A stretch of 20,000 nt of DNA from an uncultured virus (IMG/VR IMGVR_UViG_3300032233_002459) (lineage: Duplodnaviria; Heunggongvirae; Uroviricota; Caudoviricetes): the IMG/VR virus record IMGVR_UViG_3300032233_002459. One strand, written 5' to 3'. Position 1 is the first letter of the stretch; the number at the start of each line of letters is the position of its first letter. Shown piece after piece: positions 4,761-20,000 of the stretch. The position numbers were made by a program, and so were the translations under genes. The notes under the pieces were generated by a model. The model was not told the origin of the DNA, did no database searches, and was given only the letters and a program-made list of their open reading frames with translations.

Positions 4761-5091
4761 TTGGCTTAAAAATATATCCTTGACTATCACCCGACTTGCC
4801 ACGAAACTTCTTTTTGAGTTCATCATTAAGAGCAGATGCTTCTGGGGTCATTATGGCAACGCTTTTGTTTTTCTTTTCTGATGTTTGTGTAATCATTAAA
4901 GACTTAGACTTACTATTCTTTTTTGTGGAAGCCGATTCTGCTTTAACAGATTGCTTAGGTTCAGAATTAACTCGTATTGCGGCTTCGACCTTTTCTATAC
5001 CAATACCCAACTCATCCGCTATATCTCCTTGTTTATGATTTTGAGAATGAAGCCATAGTATCGCATATTCTTGCATTTTATTTTTTTTCAT
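4753..5091 (-). CDS. Small protein with N-terminal helix-turn-helix
   Basis: AILWLHSQNHKQGDIADELGIGIEKVEAAI fits an HTH pattern (IA.ELG.....V); ATGA overlap with the upstream gene. Confidence 0.65.
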   Translation of the reverse strand: MKKNKMQEYAILWLHSQNHKQGDIADELGIGIEKVEAAIRVNSEPKQSVKAESASTKKNSKSKSLMITQTSEKKNKSVAIMTPEASALNDELKKKFRGKSGDSQGYIFKPND

Positions 5092-5429
5092 ATTAGCGCC
5101 TCTCTTTGTACATTATATAGTAACGATAGGTTTTGTGAATTAAGAAATTTTATATACATATCAAAAATCTTTTGTGATACTTTAATAAATTTAAGCTCCT
5201 TATTATCGAATAAGCTTTTTGTTTTTTTATAGCCATAAATATCAAATGGATTAACTATCGTATTATTTTGTGATAAAATATAATACTTGATTCCACTATG
5301 ACTATAAACTTTTTTAGCATAAGTTTCTTTGGATTCTTGCAATGTTATTGCATTATTATCTTCATCTAATAAATGCTTAGATAAATAATTTGTATAAAAA
5401 ATACTATATGGTAATTTTATGTCGGCCAT
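5088..5429 (-). CDS. Hypothetical protein, paralog of 5765..6178
   Basis: 113 aa ORF sharing YAK..YY..NP..IFD.Y..FL..QNL.LL with the 137 aa protein. Confidence 0.75.
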   Translation of the reverse strand: MADIKLPYSIFYTNYLSKHLLDEDNNAITLQESKETYAKKVYSHSGIKYYILSQNNTIVNPFDIYGYKKTKSLFDNKELKFIKVSQKIFDMYIKFLNSQNLSLLYNVQREALI

Positions 5430-5764: not shown

Positions 5765-6178
5765 TTATTTTAAACTCCTGTTAGCCTTTTGTAAAAGTCT
5801 AAGATTTTGTGTTCTTAGAAAATCAACATAAGTATCAAATATTGATTTATCAACTTCTTTAAAAGACCATTCAGATTTACATACCTTATCTATAAAATTA
5901 GACTTATTTTTAATTGTAGAATGAATCTTTATTGGATTGTATAATTCATTTTTAGGATTAGCTATAACATAGTAGCTATAATATGTTTTTTTATCAGAAA
6001 TATGCTTTGTTTTTTTGTTGAGAATAGCTTTAGCATATACCTGATCGGATAGTTCTGATTTACATGGATTATTATCTGTATCTAGAAAATCATGATTATC
6101 TATTAAGGTATAATATTTATCACTAAAGGAATTTTCATTGGAATGAGATATATCAAAATCTTTAATATTAACTTTCAT
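5765..6178 (-). CDS. Hypothetical protein, paralog of 5088..5429
   Basis: 137 aa ORF with an ATGA overlap with the HNH stop; shares motifs with the 113 aa protein. Confidence 0.75.
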   Translation of the reverse strand: MKVNIKDFDISHSNENSFSDKYYTLIDNHDFLDTDNNPCKSELSDQVYAKAILNKKTKHISDKKTYYSYYVIANPKNELYNPIKIHSTIKNKSNFIDKVCKSEWSFKEVDKSIFDTYVDFLRTQNLRLLQKANRSLK

Positions 6179-10649: not shown

Positions 10650-11117
10650 TCATATTACACCATCAATATCTTTTATCCACGAAAGATCTGGATCTAACTT
10701 TTGTATTATCATTCCACTCATACTTACAAAAGTATCAAATCTTTTTTGAGCATCATTATCAAATAATAAAGTTCCATGATTATTAATCATATATACTGTT
10801 TTAATTCCTTCTTGCCACAAAGCAATAATACAATCATTACAACATTGTCCTGTGACATATGCTATTCCATTATCTGGCCTAATAACACAATTAGCCAATG
10901 CATTACGTTCACTATGAACCATCCAATGATATTTATCTGGACGAGTAATTGGTAGTTTATCGTCATCTAAACCTTTTGGAAAACCATTATATCCTACACC
11001 CAAAATTCTATGATTCTGGTCAGTGATTACGCATCCGTGTTGTGTATGAATATCGTGGCTGCGTTTAGATACAACCTTAGCCAGTCCTAAAAAATAATCA
11101 TTCCATGATGGTCTCAT
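10650..11117 (-). CDS. dCMP deaminase
   Basis: RPSWNDYF..LA..VSKRS.D...HGCVI...GVGYNGFPKG...KY..MVHSERNA...CCNDC..ALWQEGI; HxE and CxxC zinc motifs. Confidence 0.93.
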   Translation of the reverse strand: MRPSWNDYFLGLAKVVSKRSHDIHTQHGCVITDQNHRILGVGYNGFPKGLDDDKLPITRPDKYHWMVHSERNALANCVIRPDNGIAYVTGQCCNDCIIALWQEGIKTVYMINNHGTLLFDNDAQKRFDTFVSMSGMIIQKLDPDLSWIKDIDGVI

Positions 11118-11123
11118 GGAACT

Positions 11124-11151
11124 ATTATATCAGAGGTATCCTTTGAGTCAA
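11124..11151 (-). promoter_or_regulatory. Sigma70-type promoter TTGACT-N16-TATAAT, probably giving a leaderless mRNA
   Basis: Minus strand: TTGACT (11151-11146), 16-nt spacer, TATAAT (11129-11124), AGTTCC, then ATG at 11117; no Shine-Dalgarno. Confidence 0.72.
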
Positions 11152-11402
11152 GATGTCTTTGTTGTGAGTTTGTTGTACAAAACCAAGGATAAAACCCCAC
11201 CAGCAACGCCCATCATAAGACCAGCTGGTGAAACAGCATCATATTTACCCAATAGATAAAGCATTGCTCCACCCATATATGACCCTGCAATTCCTAGGGC
11301 AACAGTTTTGACAAAACCAAAATTTTCTTCGCCAGGAACTAGACTTTTAGCTATAGACCCAACAAATAATCCGTAAACACACCATACTAAAATATTAAAC
11401 AT
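11148..11402 (-). CDS. GlsB/YeaQ/YmgE-family (transglycosylase-associated) small membrane protein
   Basis: ILVWCVYGLFVGSIAKSLVPG...TVALGIAGSYMGG...GLMMGVAGGVLSL, three Gly-rich TM helices. Start at ATG 11402 with GGAG upstream. Confidence 0.88.
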   Translation of the reverse strand: MFNILVWCVYGLFVGSIAKSLVPGEENFGFVKTVALGIAGSYMGGAMLYLLGKYDAVSPAGLMMGVAGGVLSLVLYNKLTTKTS

Positions 11403-11793
11403 TTGCACTCTCCACTAAAGTAATAATTTCTTCTTCCGTGAGATTTTCTCCTATAGTTAATAACGCCATAACAACACTTAATCCATGTTGATTATAATCT
11501 TCTGGACTCATTTCTCTTCTGAGAACTTTTTTAATCCGCATCTTTGTAAACCAACCCTGACGATAACTATATGTTTTAATTTCTTCTCCATATAACTTAT
11601 ATTTGTCAGAAGTTGCACAATCAGCCGATAATTTATTTTTATTACATTCTTGTAAAATTCTAATACAGGTTAGTATTATACTGATCATCATTAGTATTGT
11701 GATAACAGCAAAACCATATTGGTCATCTTTATGTAATGATGTTTTATTTAAAACTTTGATTGCAATATTTTTAAGATTATCATTATTAGTCAC
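11395..11793 (-). CDS. Hypothetical membrane protein
   Basis: GTG start with AGGAG Shine-Dalgarno; hydrophobic segment FAVITILMMISIILTCI. Confidence 0.7.
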   Translation of the reverse strand: MTNNDNLKNIAIKVLNKTSLHKDDQYGFAVITILMMISIILTCIRILQECNKNKLSADCATSDKYKLYGEEIKTYSYRQGWFTKMRIKKVLRREMSPEDYNQHGLSVVMALLTIGENLTEEEIITLVESANV

Positions 11794-11800
11794 AATATTT

Positions 11801-12145
11801 TTATCTCCTAATAATTGAGCTTGGTTTACATGGGCTATTCTTGCAGTTGGGTTGTTGTGTTACTGGTGCTGTAGGATTGATAGATATAATTTCCCCAATT
11901 GAGATAGTGCCTTTATCAGCTTCACAATATGAGCACTCTATTTTTTTAATTTTATCTCCACTCATATACCAGCCGGTGCCTTTGCAAACAGGGCAATCTT
12001 TTCTTTTATATTTTTGGACAATTTCTACTGATTTAGCTTTAATAATACCGCCTGATATTGCCACAGGAGCCGTAGTAGAGCCGTAATACCCATAGGACAT
12101 AAAAATTGTGGAAGCCATCAACAAAGCCATTATTGCTTTATTCAT
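11801..12145 (-). CDS. Putative exported protein with DnaJ-like CxxCxGxG cysteine motif
   Basis: Likely start is ATG 12145 (ATGA overlap, GGAG Shine-Dalgarno). Signal-like MNKAIMALLMASTIFMS; CPVCKGTGW...CSYC. Confidence 0.7.
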   Translation of the reverse strand: MNKAIMALLMASTIFMSYGYYGSTTAPVAISGGIIKAKSVEIVQKYKRKDCPVCKGTGWYMSGDKIKKIECSYCEADKGTISIGEIISINPTAPVTQQPNCKNSPCKPSSIIRR

Positions 12146-12360
12146 TTTTTTCTCCAAGGTACAATATTGTCTATTGTATCTATAATTGTTTTAAGAGGTT
12201 TTGGTCTATGAGGCTTATTAGGTTCAGGAGATGGAGCAGGCTTTGGTTTATTTACGTCTTGTTTAGGTAAAAATTTTTCTATAATATTTACAAGTCTTTC
12301 AATAACTGAAATAATAAGATTAACTAAACCTCTGATCTCTAATCTCTCTCTAAGATTCAT
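12142..12360 (-). CDS. Small hypothetical protein with amphipathic helix and Pro-rich linker
   Basis: GAGG Shine-Dalgarno; KPKPAPSPEPNKPHRPKP linker; coupled to the next gene. Confidence 0.7.
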   Translation of the reverse strand: MNLRERLEIRGLVNLIISVIERLVNIIEKFLPKQDVNKPKPAPSPEPNKPHRPKPLKTIIDTIDNIVPWRKK

Positions 12361-12390
12361 ATATTACCTCATGATATATTATATATGTAA

Positions 12391-12403
12391 TTATAATACA
12401 CCA
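12391..12403 (-). promoter_or_regulatory. TGGTGTA motif copy (TGGTGTATTATAA)
   Basis: Intergenic; begins 43 nt before ATG 12360; these 13 nt are identical to the copy at 14733-14745. Confidence 0.62.
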
Positions 12404-12418
12404 CTAAACTATTAAAGA

Positions 12419-13345
12419 TTATAGATAGTCATCAAATCCATAATCTGGTAGTTTTTGTAGTGGAAAGCCATCGAAGTTACTAAACGCATAAGACCCATTT
12501 TGTTGTAGCATACCTTCGGCAACGGATGCTTTGATCAAAAAAGATCCGTCTGGTATTGGTCCCCATTCTGGATGACCTCCATCATTCCACTTTCCCCAGC
12601 TATTTTGTACTAAAAACGCTGGCTCGTCTCCGGTATCGTCACAGGCTATCCAGGCCATACAATGACCCCAGCTTCCAGATTGTTTAGCAAATCCTTTTTT
12701 ATCTCTTGTGCTACTAAATCCATAATTAGAACATACAGCTAAAGCATAACCATTAGCTAAAGCATCACGAGCTTCTTCTACTGTTCTAATTAATGATACA
12801 GTTTTAATTTGATGATCATTTGCTAAATCTAGTACTTTATCTGGTAATCCTCTGCCGCCCCAACCAGCACCAAGATGTCCGTTATATTTACTGAAATCAG
12901 CAACGCCAGGATAATTTTTACGCACAATAATACCGCCTATTTTACTTACAAATTCAGCAGCCCTACTGCAACTCATACCTTCTCCACTAAACCCTCTTGC
13001 TCCATATATAGCCTCGGTAGCGCCTCTAGCTACCCAACCCTCTCTTTCATTACCAACATCTATTTCTACTGCTCGACTAACATCACAAGCATTTCGTGTT
13101 CCATGGCTTACACAATCTCCAACCACCTGTCTTTCATTATAAGGATTCTTTTCAAATTTTAAAACGCTCTTGTATGGTATTGATAATTTACCTTTACCAG
13201 AGTTATTAATTTTTTTACTAGCATCACCAAATAAAGGATACTTTAAGGTATGCATCAAATGATCAAAATGATGTTCTTCCCACACGCATCCAGAGTATCC
13301 ATTACGATATTTATTGTACCAGTCTTGTGGAGTTAATCTTGGCAT
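12419..13345 (-). CDS. Papain-like (C1 family) cysteine peptidase
   Basis: Q-VVGD-C (oxyanion Gln and catalytic Cys), WGHCM (His) and LVQNSWG (Asn); no signal peptide. Confidence 0.88.
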   Translation of the reverse strand: MPRLTPQDWYNKYRNGYSGCVWEEHHFDHLMHTLKYPLFGDASKKINNSGKGKLSIPYKSVLKFEKNPYNERQVVGDCVSHGTRNACDVSRAVEIDVGNEREGWVARGATEAIYGARGFSGEGMSCSRAAEFVSKIGGIIVRKNYPGVADFSKYNGHLGAGWGGRGLPDKVLDLANDHQIKTVSLIRTVEEARDALANGYALAVCSNYGFSSTRDKKGFAKQSGSWGHCMAWIACDDTGDEPAFLVQNSWGKWNDGGHPEWGPIPDGSFLIKASVAEGMLQQNGSYAFSNFDGFPLQKLPDYGFDDYL

Positions 13346-13836
13346 TATTTACTAGCCTCATTATAAGCCCAGGCTAAAGAATTAAAACCATTTACGGCCT
13401 TTACTCTTAGTTCTGGTGATAGATTGATATTATCATCCCCAATAGCGGCTACTATAACTTCTTTTGCTTCTTTTGCTAATGAAGGATATTTTCCCTTAAT
13501 ATCCAACTTTAACATGACTCCGGCTATACTATTAGCTTGACGAATTTCTTCAGTATTTTTAATTACTAAATTTTCGCCATCTAACTCTACTAATTTCCCT
13601 AGATCAAGAGATAAATCTCTTAGTTTTTTAAAATCTGATTTAGAACCATTAGAAGACTTAAGAAGCTTAACAATATCATCAGCTTCTTTTTTAACATTAG
13701 AGTCTGATGGTTCCGTAAGTTCCATCACATCAATATTGCTTGGGCGATTTGGTAAAAAAGAACCAATATTGAATTTAGTTAATACTCCTAGTACAATTAA
13801 TATTGTTCCTATTAATAATAAAATATTTTTACTCAT
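13345..13836 (-). CDS. N-terminally membrane-anchored hypothetical protein
   Basis: MSKNILLLIGTILIVLGVL followed by a helical soluble domain; GAGG Shine-Dalgarno; coupled to both neighbours. Confidence 0.72.
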   Translation of the reverse strand: MSKNILLLIGTILIVLGVLTKFNIGSFLPNRPSNIDVMELTEPSDSNVKKEADDIVKLLKSSNGSKSDFKKLRDLSLDLGKLVELDGENLVIKNTEEIRQANSIAGVMLKLDIKGKYPSLAKEAKEVIVAAIGDDNINLSPELRVKAVNGFNSLAWAYNEASK

Positions 13837-14231
13837 ACTTTTTCCTCTAATTTACAAACATTGGGACTTAGAAATGGAAACATTTGATCAGCAACCTTTA
13901 CCGCCTCAGAACAGCCACTTTTTTCTGCTAAATCTCGTGTTTGCTTCCACGAAACAACCAGTTTAAAAAATATATCATCGTCTTTTGACACTACTATTTC
14001 TTTGGGTAGTGTTACAGGATCAATTTTTGGGATTGATACAACGGGTAATACAGAGCTATTATTTGAAGTCATATTTTTTACTTTATCAAATAATCCCAAT
14101 AGTAGTTTTTGTACTGGGCTGAGTTTATCCTTGAATAACACAAATAATACCAAGCCCACCCCTGCATATAGCGCCAAATCCATAGTTGTTAAACGACTAC
14201 TGAATTCTTGAAAACTTTCTGTAAAATTCAT
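13833..14231 (-). CDS. Membrane-anchored hypothetical protein
   Basis: LALYAGVGLVLFVLF TM segment; AAGGA Shine-Dalgarno. Confidence 0.72.
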   Translation of the reverse strand: MNFTESFQEFSSRLTTMDLALYAGVGLVLFVLFKDKLSPVQKLLLGLFDKVKNMTSNNSSVLPVVSIPKIDPVTLPKEIVVSKDDDIFFKLVVSWKQTRDLAEKSGCSEAVKVADQMFPFLSPNVCKLEEKV

Positions 14232-14244
14232 TTTATTTTTCCTT

Positions 14245-14697
14245 TTATTTGTCTGAAACTTTTGGAACCGTATCTATAGAACTATCAATTATTGAATTAG
14301 GATCAACAAAGACACCAGTACTTCTGAAGGTTGTAACCATGGCATCTATTGTTGAACTCACCAATGCCATTAAAAAAATTTTCACATACTTATGTATAAT
14401 AGGCTCTACCAAGTTTGGAACAAAGGGTATATTTATCACTAAGAAAACGCTATCATAAAATTTAGATAGCATATCCATAGCTATAACCTTTTTATCTGCT
14501 CCCGGTAAATTTGTGGCTTTATTTTCTATAACCTGAATAGTTGCAACAACAGCTAATTGTAGAATTTTCCACGCCTGATCTATAGCTACTTTTTCTACAG
14601 ACTTTAAAGACAACTTGGCTTGTTCAACCAGTTTATCTATTTCTGGCTTTATATCTTTGAGAGTGATATTCTGAGCATGTACCTCAGTATTTTGCAT
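14245..14697 (-). CDS. Hypothetical amphipathic/membrane-associated protein
   Basis: AAGGA Shine-Dalgarno; GADKK..A motif and hydrophobic stretches (VFLVINIPFVP, IFLMALVSS). Confidence 0.7.
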   Translation of the reverse strand: MQNTEVHAQNITLKDIKPEIDKLVEQAKLSLKSVEKVAIDQAWKILQLAVVATIQVIENKATNLPGADKKVIAMDMLSKFYDSVFLVINIPFVPNLVEPIIHKYVKIFLMALVSSTIDAMVTTFRSTGVFVDPNSIIDSSIDTVPKVSDK

Positions 14698-14732
14698 TAT
14701 TACTATCCTTATTATTAGAATTTAGCCTTATA

Positions 14733-14745
14733 TTATAATACACCA
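14733..14745 (-). promoter_or_regulatory. TGGTGTA motif copy (TGGTGTATTATAA)
   Basis: Intergenic; begins 48 nt before ATG 14697. Confidence 0.62.
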
Positions 14746-14755
14746 AATGCAGACA

Positions 14756-15076
14756 CTACTGTTCTATGATTGGTTTCTTTTTTGTCGTGATTTTTTTCTT
14801 TATTCTACTATTTTTACGATTAGCTTCTTTTCTTTCTGTCTCAGAAGCTGTACTCCACCAAGTTTGTTTAAGTTTTGTTCTACCATTAATATATTTAAAT
14901 AAGACCATAAGTTGTCCTATAATTAGAATTGTTGCTTCTAATCCTCTACTAGTTTCTTGGATTAAATTTTCTTTTTGACTATTATCTTCTAATAATCCAA
15001 CAAGATATAATCCACTAAAAATAAAACTTACTAAAGTAAACCAAAATTCACTTGTTCTATACCCAGGTTTTACCAT
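14756..15076 (-). CDS. Holin-like membrane protein (2 TM, highly basic C-tail)
   Basis: KPGYRTSEFW N-terminus, TM1 FWFTLVSFIFSGLYLVGLL, TM2 ATILIIGQLMVLF, C-tail RKNSRIKKKITTKKK; lies directly after the tail genes. Confidence 0.6.
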   Translation of the reverse strand: MVKPGYRTSEFWFTLVSFIFSGLYLVGLLEDNSQKENLIQETSRGLEATILIIGQLMVLFKYINGRTKLKQTWWSTASETERKEANRKNSRIKKKITTKKKPIIEQ

Positions 15077-15097
15077 ATTTATTACCTTTTTATATAG

Positions 15098-16432
15098 TTA
15101 AATTAAAGATACTAATATCTTAAATTCATCAATATTACCAATAAATCCAGCACCAGCACCAATATTATCTCCTTCGCCAATATTAAGTTGTGAACATTGG
15201 AAAGCATAAGAACTAGTACCGCTGGCCACTTCAACATCATTAGCAAAAATCTTCATAGTAGTGCCACTTCTGGTAATAACAACGCGCGTCCATGTATTGA
15301 TAGGAGCAACGCCATTGGAAGACCCAGCAATGTTTGAGGTTCCTATTCTACCAATATTTAAACTTCCAGAACCTAATTGTCCCCAAGTTAAAAATAACCC
15401 ATTTGTTGTTAAGGAGGTGGCGAATGGGAAACCAAATGTAGCAGAAGGAACCTCTGTTGGATAAATCCACAAATCTATTGTAAAATCTCCAGTAAGATCT
15501 ATATCAGAAGTATCTGTTGTGTAGAGATATCCATTTTGATCAACGGATAAAGATCCAGCACCAACTTGTTTATTTGTAGTATCTAGCGTAGCGGTTGGAC
15601 TAATACTAATAATTCTTTCAGTATCTATAGAATCAACGAACGGAGAAGAGTTCATATTCAAGTACATATTATAAGAAACAAGTACTGGAGTAACACTATC
15701 ACTAGAACCACTATATGGTCCTACATCAATATTATTTTGTGCAGCAACTCTAAAGATATAGGAAGTATCATTAACTAATCCAGTAACTGATACTGATGTA
15801 GACACACCAATACCATCGTTGAAAGTGCTCCATGTAGTTCCGCTATTTGCACTATACTGAATAATATAGTCTATGATAGCATCGCCACCATCTGATGGTT
15901 CGCTCCAAGATAGATTAACAAGACTATCTCCACCTGTGCCAGTCACTCCGCTGGGTGCTGAAGGTGCTATAGCTGGTAGGTTGGAGTATATTATACTGTC
16001 CCATCTATTTGAGATACTATCATAAATACTATCTATAAATGTTGTCGTATGATTTGCGTTATCTATTACTCCACTATTAATAATACGAAAATTACTATGC
16101 AGAGTTAAAACTTGTCCATTTGTTCTTTTTACTCTCCATAAACTTCTTTGACCATCAGATGAATTAGATGGAGCAGCTAGTGTTGCATCATCTGATAAAT
16201 TAATATTAAATACATTATATAAACTAACATCGGTACTAATTGTTCCACTAGCAGAATTAATATTTTGTATATTAGGCGTTATAGTATCCTGAGCAATTAT
16301 TGACGACAATACCGATAATGATACTTTACTTGTAACAGCAGATCCACTTGGATCGTCCATCATTAGAAAAAGATCATCACTACTTAATATGCCGCTACCG
16401 TCAGGAAGTTCATTAATCCTAATAATACCCAT
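15098..16432 (-). CDS. Virion protein with fibronectin type III and LamG/ConA-like domains
   Basis: FN3: APSAP.GVTG..GD..V.LSW.EP..GG..I.DY.IQYS...VTGL..DTSY.FRVAA.N. LamG-like: GDFTIDLWIYP...WTRVVITRSG...IFAN...FIGNIDEFKI. AGGAG Shine-Dalgarno. Confidence 0.85.
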   Translation of the reverse strand: MGIIRINELPDGSGILSSDDLFLMMDDPSGSAVTSKVSLSVLSSIIAQDTITPNIQNINSASGTISTDVSLYNVFNINLSDDATLAAPSNSSDGQRSLWRVKRTNGQVLTLHSNFRIINSGVIDNANHTTTFIDSIYDSISNRWDSIIYSNLPAIAPSAPSGVTGTGGDSLVNLSWSEPSDGGDAIIDYIIQYSANSGTTWSTFNDGIGVSTSVSVTGLVNDTSYIFRVAAQNNIDVGPYSGSSDSVTPVLVSYNMYLNMNSSPFVDSIDTERIISISPTATLDTTNKQVGAGSLSVDQNGYLYTTDTSDIDLTGDFTIDLWIYPTEVPSATFGFPFATSLTTNGLFLTWGQLGSGSLNIGRIGTSNIAGSSNGVAPINTWTRVVITRSGTTMKIFANDVEVASGTSSYAFQCSQLNIGEGDNIGAGAGFIGNIDEFKILVSLI

Positions 16433-16485: not shown

Positions 16486-16785
16486 TCACTGTTCGACCCA
16501 CTGATAAGTACTAGGATCTAAAGTAGCTTGTTCATTGGGTTGAGGAGCAATAAAAGCGTCTAAATTTTCATCATAATAATAACCAATACCAGCATAATTA
16601 CCCCTATAAGGAGTTCCACCAGTTTTGTGTTGATTAGCGTAAGTATTATAGCTGGTTCTTTTACAAACTTGTCCTCTAAAATCACCATAATATTTTTCCC
16701 AATCAATATCAAGTTCGCCCTCATCTCTACCAACAATAACTTCGGTTACAATATTATTTTCATCTAAAAATGCATAATGTGCCAT
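16486..16785 (-). CDS. Small protein associated with Gly-rich tail proteins (putative fibre assembly protein)
   Basis: MAHYAFLDENNIVTEVIVG...RTSYNT...RGNYAGIGYYYD..LDAFIAPQP...W, a pattern I recognise from genes following Gly-rich tail genes in aquatic phages. The function is inferred. Confidence 0.72.
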   Translation of the reverse strand: MAHYAFLDENNIVTEVIVGRDEGELDIDWEKYYGDFRGQVCKRTSYNTYANQHKTGGTPYRGNYAGIGYYYDENLDAFIAPQPNEQATLDPSTYQWVEQ

Positions 16786-16798
16786 AAAATTTTTCCTT

Positions 16799-17701
16799 TC
16801 AATTAAAAGTGACTGTTCCTGTGCCGCCGGTAATAGTTGTTATTCTGTCGGAGCCGGATGTTGTTGTACTACCAACAGTTAGACCTAATGAAGCAGTTAG
16901 TGTGAGAACCGAATTATATCTGATAATTACAATGCCAGAGCCGCCAGAGCCTGCTGTTATAAAACCCGTAGTCCCACCACCACCTCCTCCACCTCCTCCG
17001 GTATTTGCATCACCACTTGTAGCATTAGCGGTAGAACTACCGCCGTTACCACCGCCACCAATAACAGCATCTTTTCCACCAGTTCCTCCAGCATTACCGT
17101 TATTTCCTCCGCCGCCGCCACCGCCAGCATATGTTGTAGATGAGGAAACAGAAACCAAACTGGTTCTTCCGCTACCTCCGTTACCTCCAACCGACGCTGT
17201 GGCCGCACCACCGACAGATCCTGCTCCCCCACCGCCGCCGCCGCGTAAATTGCCATTAGTGGCTCCTCCGACATTCCCTTGCTGGGTAGCAACAATATTT
17301 GTAGCGGAAACCGTAGAAACAATTGCCCCGCCACCAGACCCACCGCGCCAAAAAGCGGCATTACCATCTTGATATCCGCCGCCAACACATATGATATTTT
17401 CAAATCTTGAATTAACACCAATATTTCCATTTGAAGCCCCGCCAGCACCAACGGTAACGCTGTAGGAAGTTCCTAAAGTTATACCAAAAGTTTGATCTAG
17501 CATACCTCCCGCCCCACCACCGCCTCTACCAAGACTAGCAGCACTTCCATTTAAAGGTGCGCCACCTCCCGCCACAACAAGTACTGATACAAAAAACGTA
17601 TCTGTATATAGTTCCCACGCATATCCACTCCATCGGTAAATACGATTATTTTGTTTTGAGAATTCATTAATTGTTGGACTACTTGGAAAACTGAATGGCA
17701 T
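16799..17701 (-). CDS. Glycine-rich tail fibre/adhesin-like protein
   Basis: LVVAGGG...GGGGAGG...VTVGAGG...YAGGGGGG...ANTGGGGGG...GSGIVIIRY glycine-rich domain; N-terminal FPSSP...YRWSGYAW module. Confidence 0.8.
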   Translation of the reverse strand: MPFSFPSSPTINEFSKQNNRIYRWSGYAWELYTDTFFVSVLVVAGGGAPLNGSAASLGRGGGGAGGMLDQTFGITLGTSYSVTVGAGGASNGNIGVNSRFENIICVGGGYQDGNAAFWRGGSGGGAIVSTVSATNIVATQQGNVGGATNGNLRGGGGGGAGSVGGAATASVGGNGGSGRTSLVSVSSSTTYAGGGGGGGNNGNAGGTGGKDAVIGGGGNGGSSTANATSGDANTGGGGGGGGGTTGFITAGSGGSGIVIIRYNSVLTLTASLGLTVGSTTTSGSDRITTITGGTGTVTFN

Positions 17702-17712
17702 AAATAAAATCC

Positions 17713-18597
17713 TTAACTAAATGAAACTGTTCCGGTTCCAGAGGTAATAGTTACAATGGTTTCGCTTCCCACAGAAGTACTGTTTGAAGTTAACCCTGCG
17801 GACAGACTGATTCGATAAGCGGAACTGAACCTCAATATGATGACGCCGCTACCGCCCGGTTGACCGGCTGGCGCACCTGTAGCAGAGCCTCCAATTCCGC
17901 CACCACCACCGCCGGTGTTTGGGCTTCCGGCAGCAACGCCGGTTGCCGCTGTCGTTGTCGCGCTTGTGCCGCCGCGACCACCACCGCCACTACCGCCAGC
18001 ACCAAAGACGCCGCCGCTGCCTGCTGCCACGTTTGTTCCACCACCGCCGCCACCCGCGTAGGTGACCGATGAACCAGTGATGGTGTTTTCAATTCCGTTG
18101 CCTCCCGCGCCTCCAGTACTTGCGGCTCCAACGCTGCCCGCCGCCGCAGCACCGCCACCTCCACCGCCGCCAGTTGCGTTTCCGTTGCCACCAGCGTTGC
18201 CCTGACCGGTCACGATAACAGCACCGCCAGTAGTCGCTGCTGTTCCACCTCCACCGCTGCCGCCACGACCATTAACGGTATTTGCTACTATTCCACCTCC
18301 ACCACCAACAGCGGCGATTGGCCCAAAACGAGTGGCTGTTGCAATCACGCTACTGGCCGCGCCCCCTGCGCCGATATCGGCAGTGAATGATGTGTTTATT
18401 GGCAGGATCAGATTTGCTGAAACGTACCCGCCCGCGCCGCCGCCACCCCCCGAGGAGTTAAATACGTTACTTCCGCCGCCACCGCCGCCAACCACCAGAG
18501 CCGTAACAGGCACTGTGGTAGCCGCCGACGATGGACTACTCGCGTAGGGCATCGCGCTGGTGATTAGCGAACCGAAGCCGTAGATACCGTTATTCAT
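17713..18597 (-). CDS. Glycine-rich tail fibre/adhesin-like protein (high-GC)
   Basis: LVVGGGGGG...GGGGAGG...IGAGG...TYAGGGGGG...NTGGGGGG...GGSGVIILRF; paralogous to the downstream gene; TAATG coupling with the upstream gene. Confidence 0.8.
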   Translation of the reverse strand: MNNGIYGFGSLITSAMPYASSPSSAATTVPVTALVVGGGGGGSNVFNSSGGGGGAGGYVSANLILPINTSFTADIGAGGAASSVIATATRFGPIAAVGGGGGIVANTVNGRGGSGGGGTAATTGGAVIVTGQGNAGGNGNATGGGGGGGAAAAGSVGAASTGGAGGNGIENTITGSSVTYAGGGGGGTNVAAGSGGVFGAGGSGGGGRGGTSATTTAATGVAAGSPNTGGGGGGIGGSATGAPAGQPGGSGVIILRFSSAYRISLSAGLTSNSTSVGSETIVTITSGTGTVSFS

Positions 18598-18980
18598 TAT
18601 AAATCTGCCCCTAATGCTGTAACGTGAGTTGTTTGACTAACACTTGTAGTAACTCTAACACTCCATGAAGCGGATGGTAGAATCAAATTGGTATATGTTG
18701 TGCTGACTCTAGTTTGCTGAACAGTGGATGATCCTGTTGCTGCGGCTATAGTAACTTCATCAAATAACCAGTATGTACTACCGTCATGTAAAAATATTCG
18801 TACAATAGCAGCAGCACTGGTAGCTGCATTTTTTACAACAATTTCTGCTATTCTTGTGCCTGTAGAAGCACCAGTAATAACTGTTCCAAAATTGGTTGGA
18901 GATGTATAAGATGCTTCTGCTGTTGCTATACTAACATTACCTATTCTTGGTGTTGCTGCGAAACTTGGACTAACGGCCAT
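18597..18980 (-). CDS. Small beta-rich virion protein (putative fibre adaptor)
   Basis: 127 aa, Thr/Ser/Ala-rich, ends in GADL; GGAG Shine-Dalgarno; lies between the fibre and Gly-rich genes. Confidence 0.68.
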   Translation of the reverse strand: MAVSPSFAATPRIGNVSIATAEASYTSPTNFGTVITGASTGTRIAEIVVKNAATSAAAIVRIFLHDGSTYWLFDEVTIAAATGSSTVQQTRVSTTYTNLILPSASWSVRVTTSVSQTTHVTALGADL

Positions 18981-18992
18981 AATATTCTCCCT

Positions 18993-20000
18993 TTATCTAA
19001 AGTTGCTCCATAAATATAAATTGATTGATGCTTGTGCGTTAACAAATCCCGTCATGGGTGGTCCCATTTCCACATATAATGAACCTGTCCATTGATATAG
19101 TCGGCTACTATCAGTTGCTAAATAATATGATGAAGTTGAGCCAGTAGCTGGAAAACTAGCTGTTGTAGCATAACTTAATATAGTAGTACTATTAACTGTA
19201 TAATTACCAGAACTAGAACTAACACTAATTCCAGAACCAGCAGAGATATTAGTTACCGGTAATAGTCCACTAACACTACTATTAAAATCACTAATATTTG
19301 AAGCTGTATGAGAATGACCACTAACACTAACATCAATATTATTAAGGGTTAAACTAGTAGTAAAATTACCACTAGGAGCAGTCAACAACGATCCATCAAA
19401 AGTTAAATTACTTTCAGCATTAATTCCTGTTGATGTTCCATCAGATGTTAATATTCTATTATCAGCATAATTAGTTATGCTAACTCCACCACCACCCGTT
19501 CCACTACTACTAATAGTTAAAGTATTAGCACTATCATTATAATCAAGAGTTATTCCACTACCAGCAATCAGAAACCCAGAAGCCCCAACAACATCTTGAA
19601 CAGATTCAGTAAAATCGGTTATATTAGAACTAGTGTGGGCATGACCACTAATACTAACTCCAGTTCCATTGACAAACGGAAGGTCACTAAAAGTTTTAAC
19701 TCCACTAATAGTCTGATTACCACTTGTATAAACAATATTGTCTGGAAATAATGCTAGTGATCCATCACCCTTTAGGTATTGAGAAGAGGTTCCCCCTTGA
19801 GTAATGAACTTATCTGCATTAATATATTGAAAATAATCGATAGAATTAGTAGATCCACCAGTTGCAGACAACGCTACTAGTGTTGAATTTGTTTTATCAT
19901 ATACGCAATTTAATATTGAATAAAATCCACTTAGTACAACTGGGGCGACATTACTTAATGCCGAAGTTAGCATTTGACAGTTGGCTAAAGTAATGATACT
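18993..20000 (-). CDS. Tail fibre protein, C-terminal part; starts beyond the right edge
   Basis: The frame stays open from 20000 (SIITLANCQ) into the track's ATG 19973. Fibre-type motifs: GGTSSQYLKGDGS, GNQTISGVKTF, two GHxHT..NI.DF repeats, AGSGI, FPATG...RLYQWTG. Confidence 0.82.
   Translation of the reverse strand, partial: SIITLANCQMLTSALSNVAPVVLSGFYSILNCVYDKTNSTLVALSATGGSTNSIDYFQYINADKFITQGGTSSQYLKGDGSLALFPDNIVYTSGNQTISGVKTFSDLPFVNGTGVSISGHAHTSSNITDFTESVQDVVGASGFLIAGSGITLDYNDSANTLTISSSGTGGGGVSITNYADNRILTSDGTSTGINAESNLTFDGSLLTAPSGNFTTSLTLNNIDVSVSGHSHTASNISDFNSSVSGLLPVTNISAGSGISVSSSSGNYTVNSTTILSYATTASFPATGSTSSYYLATDSSRLYQWTGSLYVEMGPPMTGFVNAQASINLYLWSNFR
19266..19658 (-). repeat. Two imperfect 66-nt intragenic repeats (19593-19658 and 19266-19331)
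   Basis: VSISGHAHTSSNITDFTESVQD versus VSVSGHSHTASNISDFNSSVSG; the DNA starts GTTAGTATTAGTGGTCAT versus GTTAGTGTTAGTGGTCAT. Confidence 0.8.

Follow-up and report, generated by a model that had tools for sequence, protein, structure and literature searches.

The subject of this analysis is a 20,000-nt stretch of DNA from an uncultured virus of the Caudoviricetes, a giant phage of fresh water (IMG/VR record IMGVR_UViG_3300032233_002459), referred to below as the window; all coordinates are those of the window, whose first letter is position 1. Nine co-oriented genes on its minus strand, g1 to g9, transcribed from 15076 down to 11148, include the gene for a papain-fold cysteine peptidase, g5, and we see about an even chance that they form an envelope-directed module that is the lysis cassette of this lineage, built on a papain-family peptidase. 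A lysis system of this kind had been proposed in an earlier note on the same DNA. The parts of that proposal that stand are the cassette itself, which is real and conserved, the papain fold, the lack of matches to canonical endolysin families in complete relatives and the likely action of relatives at the envelope, whereas lysis is a step that we infer. All nine open reading frames (ORFs) are present where the note had placed them, on the strand that carries all long ORFs of the window, and the features read in them were recovered as well: the membrane segments of g1, g3, g4 and g8, the GADKK motif of g2, the Pro-rich composition of g6, the CxxCxGxG motif of g7, and the overlaps between neighboring genes (ATGA at g3/g4 and TAATG at g4/g5).

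The central gene, g5 (12419–13345, minus strand), encodes a protein of 308 amino acids (aa). Its AlphaFold2 model, built on 47 homologs, reached a pLDDT (predicted local distance difference test) of 94.3 and displays the two-lobed papain fold. Foldseek returned 258 matches to this model at E ≤ 0.001, among them xylellain (PDB 3ois) at E = 3.7e-10. In structural comparisons with VIA, the model was superimposed on xylellain with Z = 20.4 and a root-mean-square deviation of 3.2 over 235 residues, and Z values of 17–19 were obtained for about 50 C1A entries, including cathepsins, papain, falcipains and their precursors. Within the best 50 entries, all with Z of at least 16.7, every entry that could be placed by its title is a C1 enzyme; the structural matches include Cwp84 (Z = 16.7), a C1A enzyme used by bacteria to process a surface-layer protein. 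The identity of g5 to solved members of the papain family is 11–17%. A profile of the g5 family, constructed from the 47 homologs, matched 102 PDB sequences at E ≤ 1, of which the best 60 are all C1 enzymes aligned at the His ... NSWG block, including caricain (4.7e-5; block aligned to caricain residues 157–189) and xylellain (1.3e-4 over 225 residues). The earlier description of g5 as a C1 peptidase is thus supported by fold and by family profile but not by the Pfam model: the protein matches no Pfam family at E ≤ 10, Peptidase_C1 (PF00112) included. The precomputed Pfam assignment is likewise empty for all of the closest 120 homologs, and phmmer with g5 alone against the PDB yielded just two matches at chance level (E ~ 0.095).

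The catalytic arrangement typical of C1 enzymes, in which a Gln precedes the Cys and is followed by the His and then by Asn-Ser-Trp, is found in g5. Gln73, Cys78 and His228 are invariant across the 47 diverse homologs (32–89% identity), and Ser249 and Trp250, in the Asn-Ser-Trp block after the His, reach 90% conservation or more; only the closer eight sequences have Asn248 without exception, and some distant homologs have a replacement there. The window protein has the Cys-His-Asn triad that had been ascribed to it and, also as described, no signal peptide; an N-terminal hydrophobic segment is likewise missing. No conserved disulfide pair was found in the family, where Cys78 is the only general cysteine. 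The family is large, with 2031 close homologs in public data (the best 120 are 79–93% identical and lie on contigs of up to 236 kb) and 1465 representatives at E ≤ 0.001. In a set of 150 distant homologs taken as representatives (P0121–P0270), 41 are interrupted by inserts exceeding 100 aa, located just before Cys78 in 27 cases, near residues 215–250, around the His, in 19 and at both sites in 5. Intein or LAGLIDADG families were recognized in 10 of the 16 long homologs tested. Inteins home to strongly constrained sites, and their presence therefore fits an active enzyme that phages cannot lose. Judged from its model and its conserved residues, g5 is a real papain-fold (C1-type) enzyme with an intact catalytic set, and peptidase activity is predicted for it.

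A key question is on which side of the cytoplasmic membrane this enzyme works. The gene directly ahead of g5, g4 (13345–13836, minus strand, 163 aa), overlaps it by one base in the TAATG junction; reading this junction by eye revealed no slippery site for a g4-g5 frameshift fusion, although no dedicated search was made. The g4 protein has a transmembrane (TM) helix at residues 4–22, present in all 65 family members, followed by a helical bundle; its model (pLDDT 89.6) is all-helical and found no PDB match by Foldseek at E ≤ 0.001 (best 0.59), so that a likeness to the cathepsin propeptide domain was not shown. Two sets of loci served to trace this conserved peptidase partner. In the first, 80 related IMG/VR loci were selected by g5 and the cassette proteins were located by tblastn; in the second, 21 more distant loci (g5 identity 33–89%) were found with an eight-row g5 alignment and scanned with profiles of the nine proteins. 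In 79 of the 80 close loci g4 adjoins g5. A g4-type protein was detected by profile in 14 of the 21 distant loci: in nine it abuts the start of g5, in two it has the same position while g5 is cut by the contig end, and in three it lies within 1.7 kb downstream. The coupling of g4 and g5 is kept down to 35% identity.

Additional evidence is provided by relatives in which the two parts are joined. In 14 of the 150 representatives, one TM helix and a stretch of at least 200 residues precede the peptidase domain, whose start corresponds to g5 residue 18 to 57 (~46–57 in 10 of the 14), and a recognizable g4 domain is present in seven of these anchored fusions (7/150). The N-flanks of all 14 are rich in Lys/Arg, and the flank after the helix is acidic or rich in Pro/Gly in 10; by the positive-inside rule, Lys/Arg-rich N-flanks suggest that the rest of the fusion protein lies outside the membrane. 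In the VIA alignments, residue 1 of mature papain falls at g5 residues ~48–51, and the span that aligns to the C-terminal part of the procathepsin and propapain propeptides includes g5 residues 5–47, so the fused relatives would have the classical layout of a pre-pro-enzyme, with a signal or anchor, a pro-region and the mature enzyme. The papain-type precursor appears to have been split into g4 and g5 in the window phage. Eight further representatives of the 150, as well as the g5 copies of two distant loci (L093 and L094), bear twin-arginine-type signals. Since relatives carry membrane-anchor fusions and twin-arginine signals, the enzyme family appears to act outside the cytoplasm, and the g5 protease most likely works outside the cytoplasmic membrane.

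A third component is a thiol-redox-type exported protein encoded after g5 in four clades. In the window it is represented by g7 (11801–12157, minus strand, 118 aa), which has a signal-like N-terminus and two CxxC pairs (CxxCxGxGW ... CxxC), whose cysteines 55, 58, 75 and 78 are invariant in 50 sequences. In locus L098, the protein after g5 combines a signal, a CxGxGW motif and a thioredoxin/DsbD-like domain (PDB, E = 6e-7; PHROG thioredoxin, 1.2e-5); in L093 it is a WCxxC protein with a weak thioredoxin match (E = 0.0065), and in L103 and L105 a g7-type CxxC protein with a lipobox, detected by hidden Markov model (HMM), directly follows g5. We regard g7 as a candidate exported thiol-redox or zinc partner. 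A redox partner makes sense in the periplasm and not in the cytoplasm, because the thiol of a cysteine protease must be kept or released in an oxidizing periplasm. As far as the compared sequences indicate, g4 and g5, followed by an exported protein of the CxxC or thioredoxin type, form the deepest conserved unit of the cassette.

The conservation of the cassette as a whole is far beyond chance. Of the 80 close loci, g1 was found in 74, g2 in 76, g3 in 78, g4 in 79, g6 in 36, g7 in 76, g8 in 74 and g9 in 74, and the synteny that the earlier note had wished to see checked in relatives was confirmed, with the same order and orientation in 68/80. In 11 of the other 12, a contig end truncates the locus, and the last, L002, continues with different genes behind g5. 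The median identity to the window proteins is 81% for g5, 79% for g9 and 52–70% for g1–g4 (70% for g1). The surroundings are conserved to different degrees: the dCMP deaminase gene that follows the cassette in the window was found in 68/80 loci and reductase genes in 7–8, and the tail-fiber gene upstream was detected in 28/80 with a median coverage of 0.12. Accordingly, the statement that the nine genes lie directly after the tail genes is true of this window but does not describe a conserved position. No match to the window was found among 50,697 phage records, either for g5 by tblastn or for the whole window by megablast.

The distant loci lie on contigs from metagenome-assembled genomes (MAGs) labeled Flavobacteriales (three), Chitinophagales, several Planctomycetota and others, such labels being unreliable for phage contigs. 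The g4-g5 pairs on the Planctomycetota contigs, one of which is 922 kb long, show 36–41% identity. In L093 and L094, an exported 206-aa protein, the signal-bearing g5, a thioredoxin-like protein, a 127-aa protein, the large terminase and the portal follow one another in this order. The 127-aa protein (L093:8578–8961 and L094:4259–4642) has a twin-arginine/lipobox-like start and a C-terminal TM helix, an architecture that we take to recall that of a unimolecular spanin. In another contig, G011:C24, the trio is located between primase/replication genes and TerL. Judging from gene order, the pair in the small phage contigs L093 and G011:C24 sits where lysis genes often sit. In G010:C12, the pair is preceded by an S8 subtilase. 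As a separate observation, the large terminase of G012:C302 (L131:2918–6223, 1101 aa) has a LAGLIDADG match and probably bears an intein.

Another important question is whether these phages encode a conventional lysis enzyme. Pfam and PHROG searches of the window proteins found no muralytic family, in agreement with the earlier reading that lysozyme, amidase, M15, M23 and CHAP motifs are missing from the cassette. A loose scan for a lipobox in every frame of at least 35 aa in 11100–15100 found none, again as had been read, and the combination expected of a spanin, a lipobox lipoprotein and an inner-membrane component, was not found in the window. A genome-wide search for an endolysin, which the note had recommended, was possible in relatives. 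One of these, G006, is complete, with 201,067 bp and terminal repeats. Pfam scans of all its 211 ORFs of at least 75 aa and PHROG scans of the 135 ORFs with no informative Pfam match revealed no lysozyme, transglycosylase, amidase, M15, M23, CHAP, NlpC/P60, holin or spanin family, and the only matches of the "lysis" class were rIIA and rIIB. Six-frame family searches were applied to 17 relatives to which CheckV assigns 100% completeness, four of which have terminal repeats; seven muralytic families had working controls in these searches, and for GH25, GH108 and M15_3 the coverage is limited to the Pfam scan of G006. None of the 17 matched Phage_lysozyme, Amidase_2, Amidase_3, SLT, M23 or CHAP, and no true match was found to any of the seven families. 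Two kinds of weak match were rejected: those to M15_4 in two relatives lie in the DnaE polymerase, and the one to NlpC/P60 in a single relative lies in a Cys-free segment of a tail fiber.

The remaining members of the cassette are small proteins, most of them with membrane segments. The first gene, g1 (14756–15076, minus strand, 106 aa), encodes a protein with two hydrophobic segments (11–29 and 45–63) and a Lys/Arg-rich C-terminal tail; it has a holin-like anatomy, being small, TM-bearing and charged at its C-terminus. At the threshold used, two segments were detected in 20 of 58 relatives and one in 37. The Atlas provided a lead only, a Phage_holin_1 cluster at 0.82. We consider g1 a holin candidate. 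A second holin-like candidate is g2 (14245–14697, minus strand, 150 aa), the amphipathic-type protein with the GADKK motif, for which the Atlas lead is a cluster at 0.82 with PF09682 (Holin_LLH) on 23% of its members. The g3 protein (13833–14231, minus strand, 132 aa) has a TM helix at 14–32 and a C-terminal domain with two cysteines, Cys107 and Cys126, which are invariant in 63 sequences and both lie in the domain predicted to be exported; neither it nor its relatives matched any Pfam or PHROG family. No family was found in the same databases for g6 (12142–12360, minus strand, 72 aa), a small Pro-rich protein with a hydrophobic N-terminus and the least conserved member of the cassette. The single-pass membrane protein g8 (11395–11793, minus strand, 132 aa) has its TM helix at 29–47 in 62/62 family members; it gave no family matches, and weak HMM matches to it occur near g5 in L097, L098 and L099. 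The last gene, g9 (11148–11408, minus strand, 86 aa), encodes a small membrane protein that had been called GlsB/YeaQ/YmgE (the Transgly_assoc family). The window protein matches PF04226 with E = 3e-4 and 21.4 bits, under the cut-off of 25.3, and among its relatives 14/14 match at E ≤ 0.01 and 11/14 exceed the cut-off; the assignment therefore rests on the relatives, through which it is borne out.

In the window, the cassette is situated between a tail-fiber gene and a promoter-preceded dCMP deaminase gene. Upstream, in the order of transcription, are two Gly_rich_2 proteins, followed by a protein of 444 aa that bears FN3 and laminin-G domains (15098–16432); the latter gene and g1 are only 21 bases apart. 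Downstream are the dCMP deaminase, both ribonucleotide reductase subunits, MazG, PhoH, an HNH protein, RecA, DnaB and a presumed primase, the last so named by analogy with a syntenic Toprim gene of G006, with no family match in the window. Of all sigma-70-type sites in the region, the best occupies the gap of 30 bases that separates g9 from the deaminase gene (11124–11151, minus strand); this promoter-like site matches 11 of 12 positions and has an extended -10 TG, as a match to consensus only. It probably marks the downstream end of the cassette transcription unit, and the cassette probably ends a unit shared with the tail-fiber genes; if this unit is shared, the cassette would be late in this phage. 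A second 11/12 sigma-70-type site is present in the gap before PhoH (7515–7487, minus strand). The Planctomycetota/PVC host that had been guessed for this virus does not fit a GC content of ~33% and strong sigma-70-type sites in two intergenic gaps. The promoter-like sites hint at a host whose promoters are of the ordinary -35/-10 kind and not of the Bacteroidota type. We also considered a Bacteroidota host, for which there are three Flavobacteriales MAG labels, and leave it open in view of the -35/-10-type promoter-like sites and the unreliability of the labels.

Several further observations concern the window and G006. The GC content of the window is 27–38% except within 16.5–19 kb, where it is 45–57%; the GC-rich segment at 16500–19000 lies inside the two paralogous Gly_rich_2 tail-fiber-like genes (16799–17701 and 17713–18597) and is due either to the biased composition of Gly-rich repeats or to a recent acquisition. 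In the replication block, two small proteins (5088–5429, 113 aa; 5765–6178, 137 aa) share a C-terminal stretch that looks similar by eye and are paralog-like. The ORFs of G006 include one of 5679 aa, which is tape-measure-like, and one of 4112 aa. Its DnaE is divided between two genes, and the genome further encodes a volactin-type actin homolog, two proteins with SET domains, an S8 subtilase adjacent to a trypsin-like protease, many glycosyltransferases and rIIA/rIIB. A 527-aa protein encoded between g9 and the deaminase in that genome (L088:15984–17567) matches Peptidase_C39_2 weakly (E = 2.3e-4, below the cut-off); the window lacks this protein, which may be another papain-like enzyme next to the cassette.

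Taken as a lysis system, the cassette could work as follows. The g5 protein would be an active papain-family peptidase working outside the cytoplasmic membrane. Made by coupled translation just ahead of it, g4 would be an anchor with its N-terminus inside and its C-terminus outside, whose helical periplasmic domain would hold or control g5 and occupy the place of the papain pre-pro part. The g7 protein would keep or switch the catalytic thiol of g5 in the oxidizing periplasm, a task that a thioredoxin domain would take over in other clades. The signal-less g5 of the window would reach the periplasm once the holin-like g1, perhaps together with g2, opens the membrane, and the released enzyme would cut peptide bonds of the wall or the tethers between the wall and the outer membrane, with g3, g6, g8 and g9 as membrane accessories. 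The topology, redox control, holin-dependent release, substrate and lysis role in this scheme are elements that we infer. A wider and more tentative proposal, which we think somewhat likelier to fail than to hold, is that a widespread lineage of giant phages from aquatic habitats, and with it smaller temperate phages whose hosts are of the Planctomycetota and Bacteroidota type, lyse their hosts with no muralytic glycosidase or amidase, by means of a membrane-tethered periplasmic papain-family protease whose pre-pro part is a separate anchor gene and whose thiol is switched by an exported CxxC or thioredoxin partner, and which cuts wall peptides or wall-tethering proteins.

A number of results weigh against lysis by this cassette. 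The window g5 bears no export signal, and its exit route is assumed. Neither holin candidate belongs to an established family: Pfam and PHROG assigned none to g1 in the window or in 14 relatives (0/15 holin matches), and the holin similarity of g2 is sub-threshold, as the window protein has no Pfam match at E ≤ 10, PF09682 included, and 2/14 relatives match this family weakly (E = 1.3e-3 and 2.8e-3; 19.5 and 18.5 bits; cut-off 24.9). The available parts of the literature searched contain no report of a C1-family enzyme that cuts peptidoglycan or of a C1 phage lysis enzyme. With 81% identity against 52–70% for g1–g4, g5 is unusually conserved for a lysis gene. The genomic context is not uniform either: in L002, a 471-aa Pro/Thr-rich protein stands after g5 in place of g6–g9; in G006, the cassette lies among non-structural genes and is interrupted by a 677-aa ORF that separates g7 from g8 and by two ORFs (527 and 1247 aa) ahead of the deaminase; and in two Planctomycetota contigs the pair is found between the genes for capsid and head decoration or closing the head module (L108 and G012:C302), a moron-like position rather than that of a lysis gene. 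As for the search for endolysins, GH19 gave 0/17, but its control was silent and the result is uninformative, while the lack of an endolysin in three small phage/MAG contigs (113 ORFs) says little, as these are fragments. G006 has other candidate lytic enzymes in its S8 subtilase, its trypsin-like protease and its many proteins of unassigned function, and about half of its ORFs match no family, so a muralytic enzyme of unrecognized fold may exist in these genomes.

These data raise the question of whether g4, g5 and g7 act in the envelope but do not lyse the cell, trimming host surface or periplasmic proteins during infection or lysogeny. We consider this unlikely. Possible purposes include superinfection exclusion, destruction of receptors so that progeny are not trapped, and the processing of phage-encoded exported proteins. 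All of the evidence for periplasmic action applies equally to such a role. The position of the pair by capsid and decoration genes in L108 and G012:C302 would also suit it: L108, within the 922-kb Thermoguttaceae contig, lies beside an integrase, a capsid-protease fusion, a head-decoration gene and a transposase, and moron-like spots often hold lysogenic-conversion genes. The strong conservation of g5 fits an enzyme with a fixed protein substrate, for which Cwp84, with its surface-layer target, offers an example among the structural matches. A purely non-lytic role, however, leaves 17 relatives rated as complete with no detectable lytic enzyme, and it explains neither the constant company of the holin-like g1 and g2 and four more membrane proteins nor the pre-terminase position in L093 with its spanin-like neighbor.

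Lysis by the cassette could also depend on a different wall-cutting protein. According to this explanation, which we hold to be improbable, the wall is opened by an unrecognized muralytic protein, encoded elsewhere or among g2–g4 and g8, and g5 is a spanin-like or accessory factor that, for example, cuts the protein tethers between wall and outer membrane or activates another enzyme. It agrees with the known C1 enzymes, which are hydrolases of proteins and peptides, none being reported to act on peptidoglycan in the accessible parts of the literature searched, and with the window having no spanin-like lipoprotein, so that another step must breach the outer membrane. Room for an additional enzyme exists both in the ORFs of G006 that match no family and in g4, whose fold matches nothing solved. 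Yet no candidate muralytic fold emerged from any scan, g2, g3, g4 and g8 are small, g4 is modeled as all-helical, and the deep core of g4, g5 and the CxxC protein includes no further enzyme.

Least probable is that g5 is an intracellular or virion enzyme, a maturation protease for very large structural proteins or a host-takeover protease with the membrane genes as unrelated neighbors: the missing signal of the window protein, inteins and strong conservation as often seen in core replication and morphogenesis genes, the location beside capsid genes in two contigs and G006 proteins of 5679 and 4112 aa that might need processing speak for it, but anchor fusions (14/150) and twin-arginine signals (8/150) place relatives outside the cytoplasm, exported redox partners recur, G006 already has a ClpP-type head protease, and the g4-g5 coupling persists down to 35% identity.

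If the cassette does lyse the host by means of its papain-family enzyme, the consequences would be considerable. To our knowledge, every dsDNA phage studied so far opens the wall with a glycosidase, an amidase or a small endopeptidase; a true papain-family enzyme equipped with an anchor and a redox partner of its own would be a new enzyme class and a new control logic in phage lysis, as well as a new type of envelope-active enzyme. It would also explain the apparent lack of an endolysin in very abundant uncultured freshwater phages, to judge by the 2031 close homologs. Even if the role is not lysis, the cassette would be a conserved means by which phages deliver a protease to the periplasm of the host, and the series of split and fused g4-g5 forms would represent a clean case of a zymogen pre-pro region becoming a separate gene.

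Among known systems, the papain family (MEROPS C1, clan CA), represented by xylellain, cathepsins B, K and L, papain and Cwp84, is the closest to g5 in structure. They have in common the fold (Z from 20.4 to 16.7) and the arrangement of Gln, Cys, His and Asn-Ser-Trp, the N-terminal segment of g5 aligns to the end of the propeptide, and the fused relatives resemble pre-pro-enzymes. The g5 protein differs from this family in its low identity (11–17%), in matching PF00112 nowhere and in having no conserved disulfide; moreover, its pre-pro part is split off as the membrane-anchored g4, it is encoded within a phage cassette of membrane genes, and its relatives carry inteins at the active site. A viral member of the family is V-CATH of baculoviruses, a C1A cathepsin responsible for liquefying the insect host at a late stage of infection. 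Like g5, it is a virus-encoded papain-family protease; it is made as a precursor and breaks the host open at the end of infection, as g5 would. V-CATH belongs to a eukaryotic virus, however, its target is tissue and not a bacterial envelope, and it is not accompanied by a cassette of membrane proteins; the two are likened by family fold only.

The canonical lysis cassette, holin-endolysin-spanin, is that of lambda, S-R-Rz/Rz1, and in the signal-arrest-release (SAR) endolysin Lyz of P1 the catalytic Cys is thiol-caged. In canonical cassettes, small membrane proteins are likewise clustered with one soluble hydrolase. Similar to exported and SAR endolysins, the g5 family mixes signal-less, signal-bearing and membrane-tethered forms, and control through a thiol is possible. 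The differences are that g5 is not a glycosidase, an amidase or a peptidase of the LAS/M23 type, that no member of the cassette matches a known holin or spanin family, that five further conserved membrane or exported partners are present, and that the lysis role of the nine genes is deduced rather than established.

The clan CA wall peptidases of endolysins include CHAP, NlpC/P60, Amidase_5 and the pseudomurein endoisopeptidases PeiW and PeiP (PMC10318531). Like g5, these are Cys-His hydrolases of the papain-like superfamily, and phages cut wall peptides with them. CHAP, NlpC/P60 and Pei-type clan CA domains are the nearest known cases to a phage lysis enzyme of the C1 family. They nevertheless belong to different families with smaller and simpler folds, whereas g5, as modeled, is a full C1-type enzyme.

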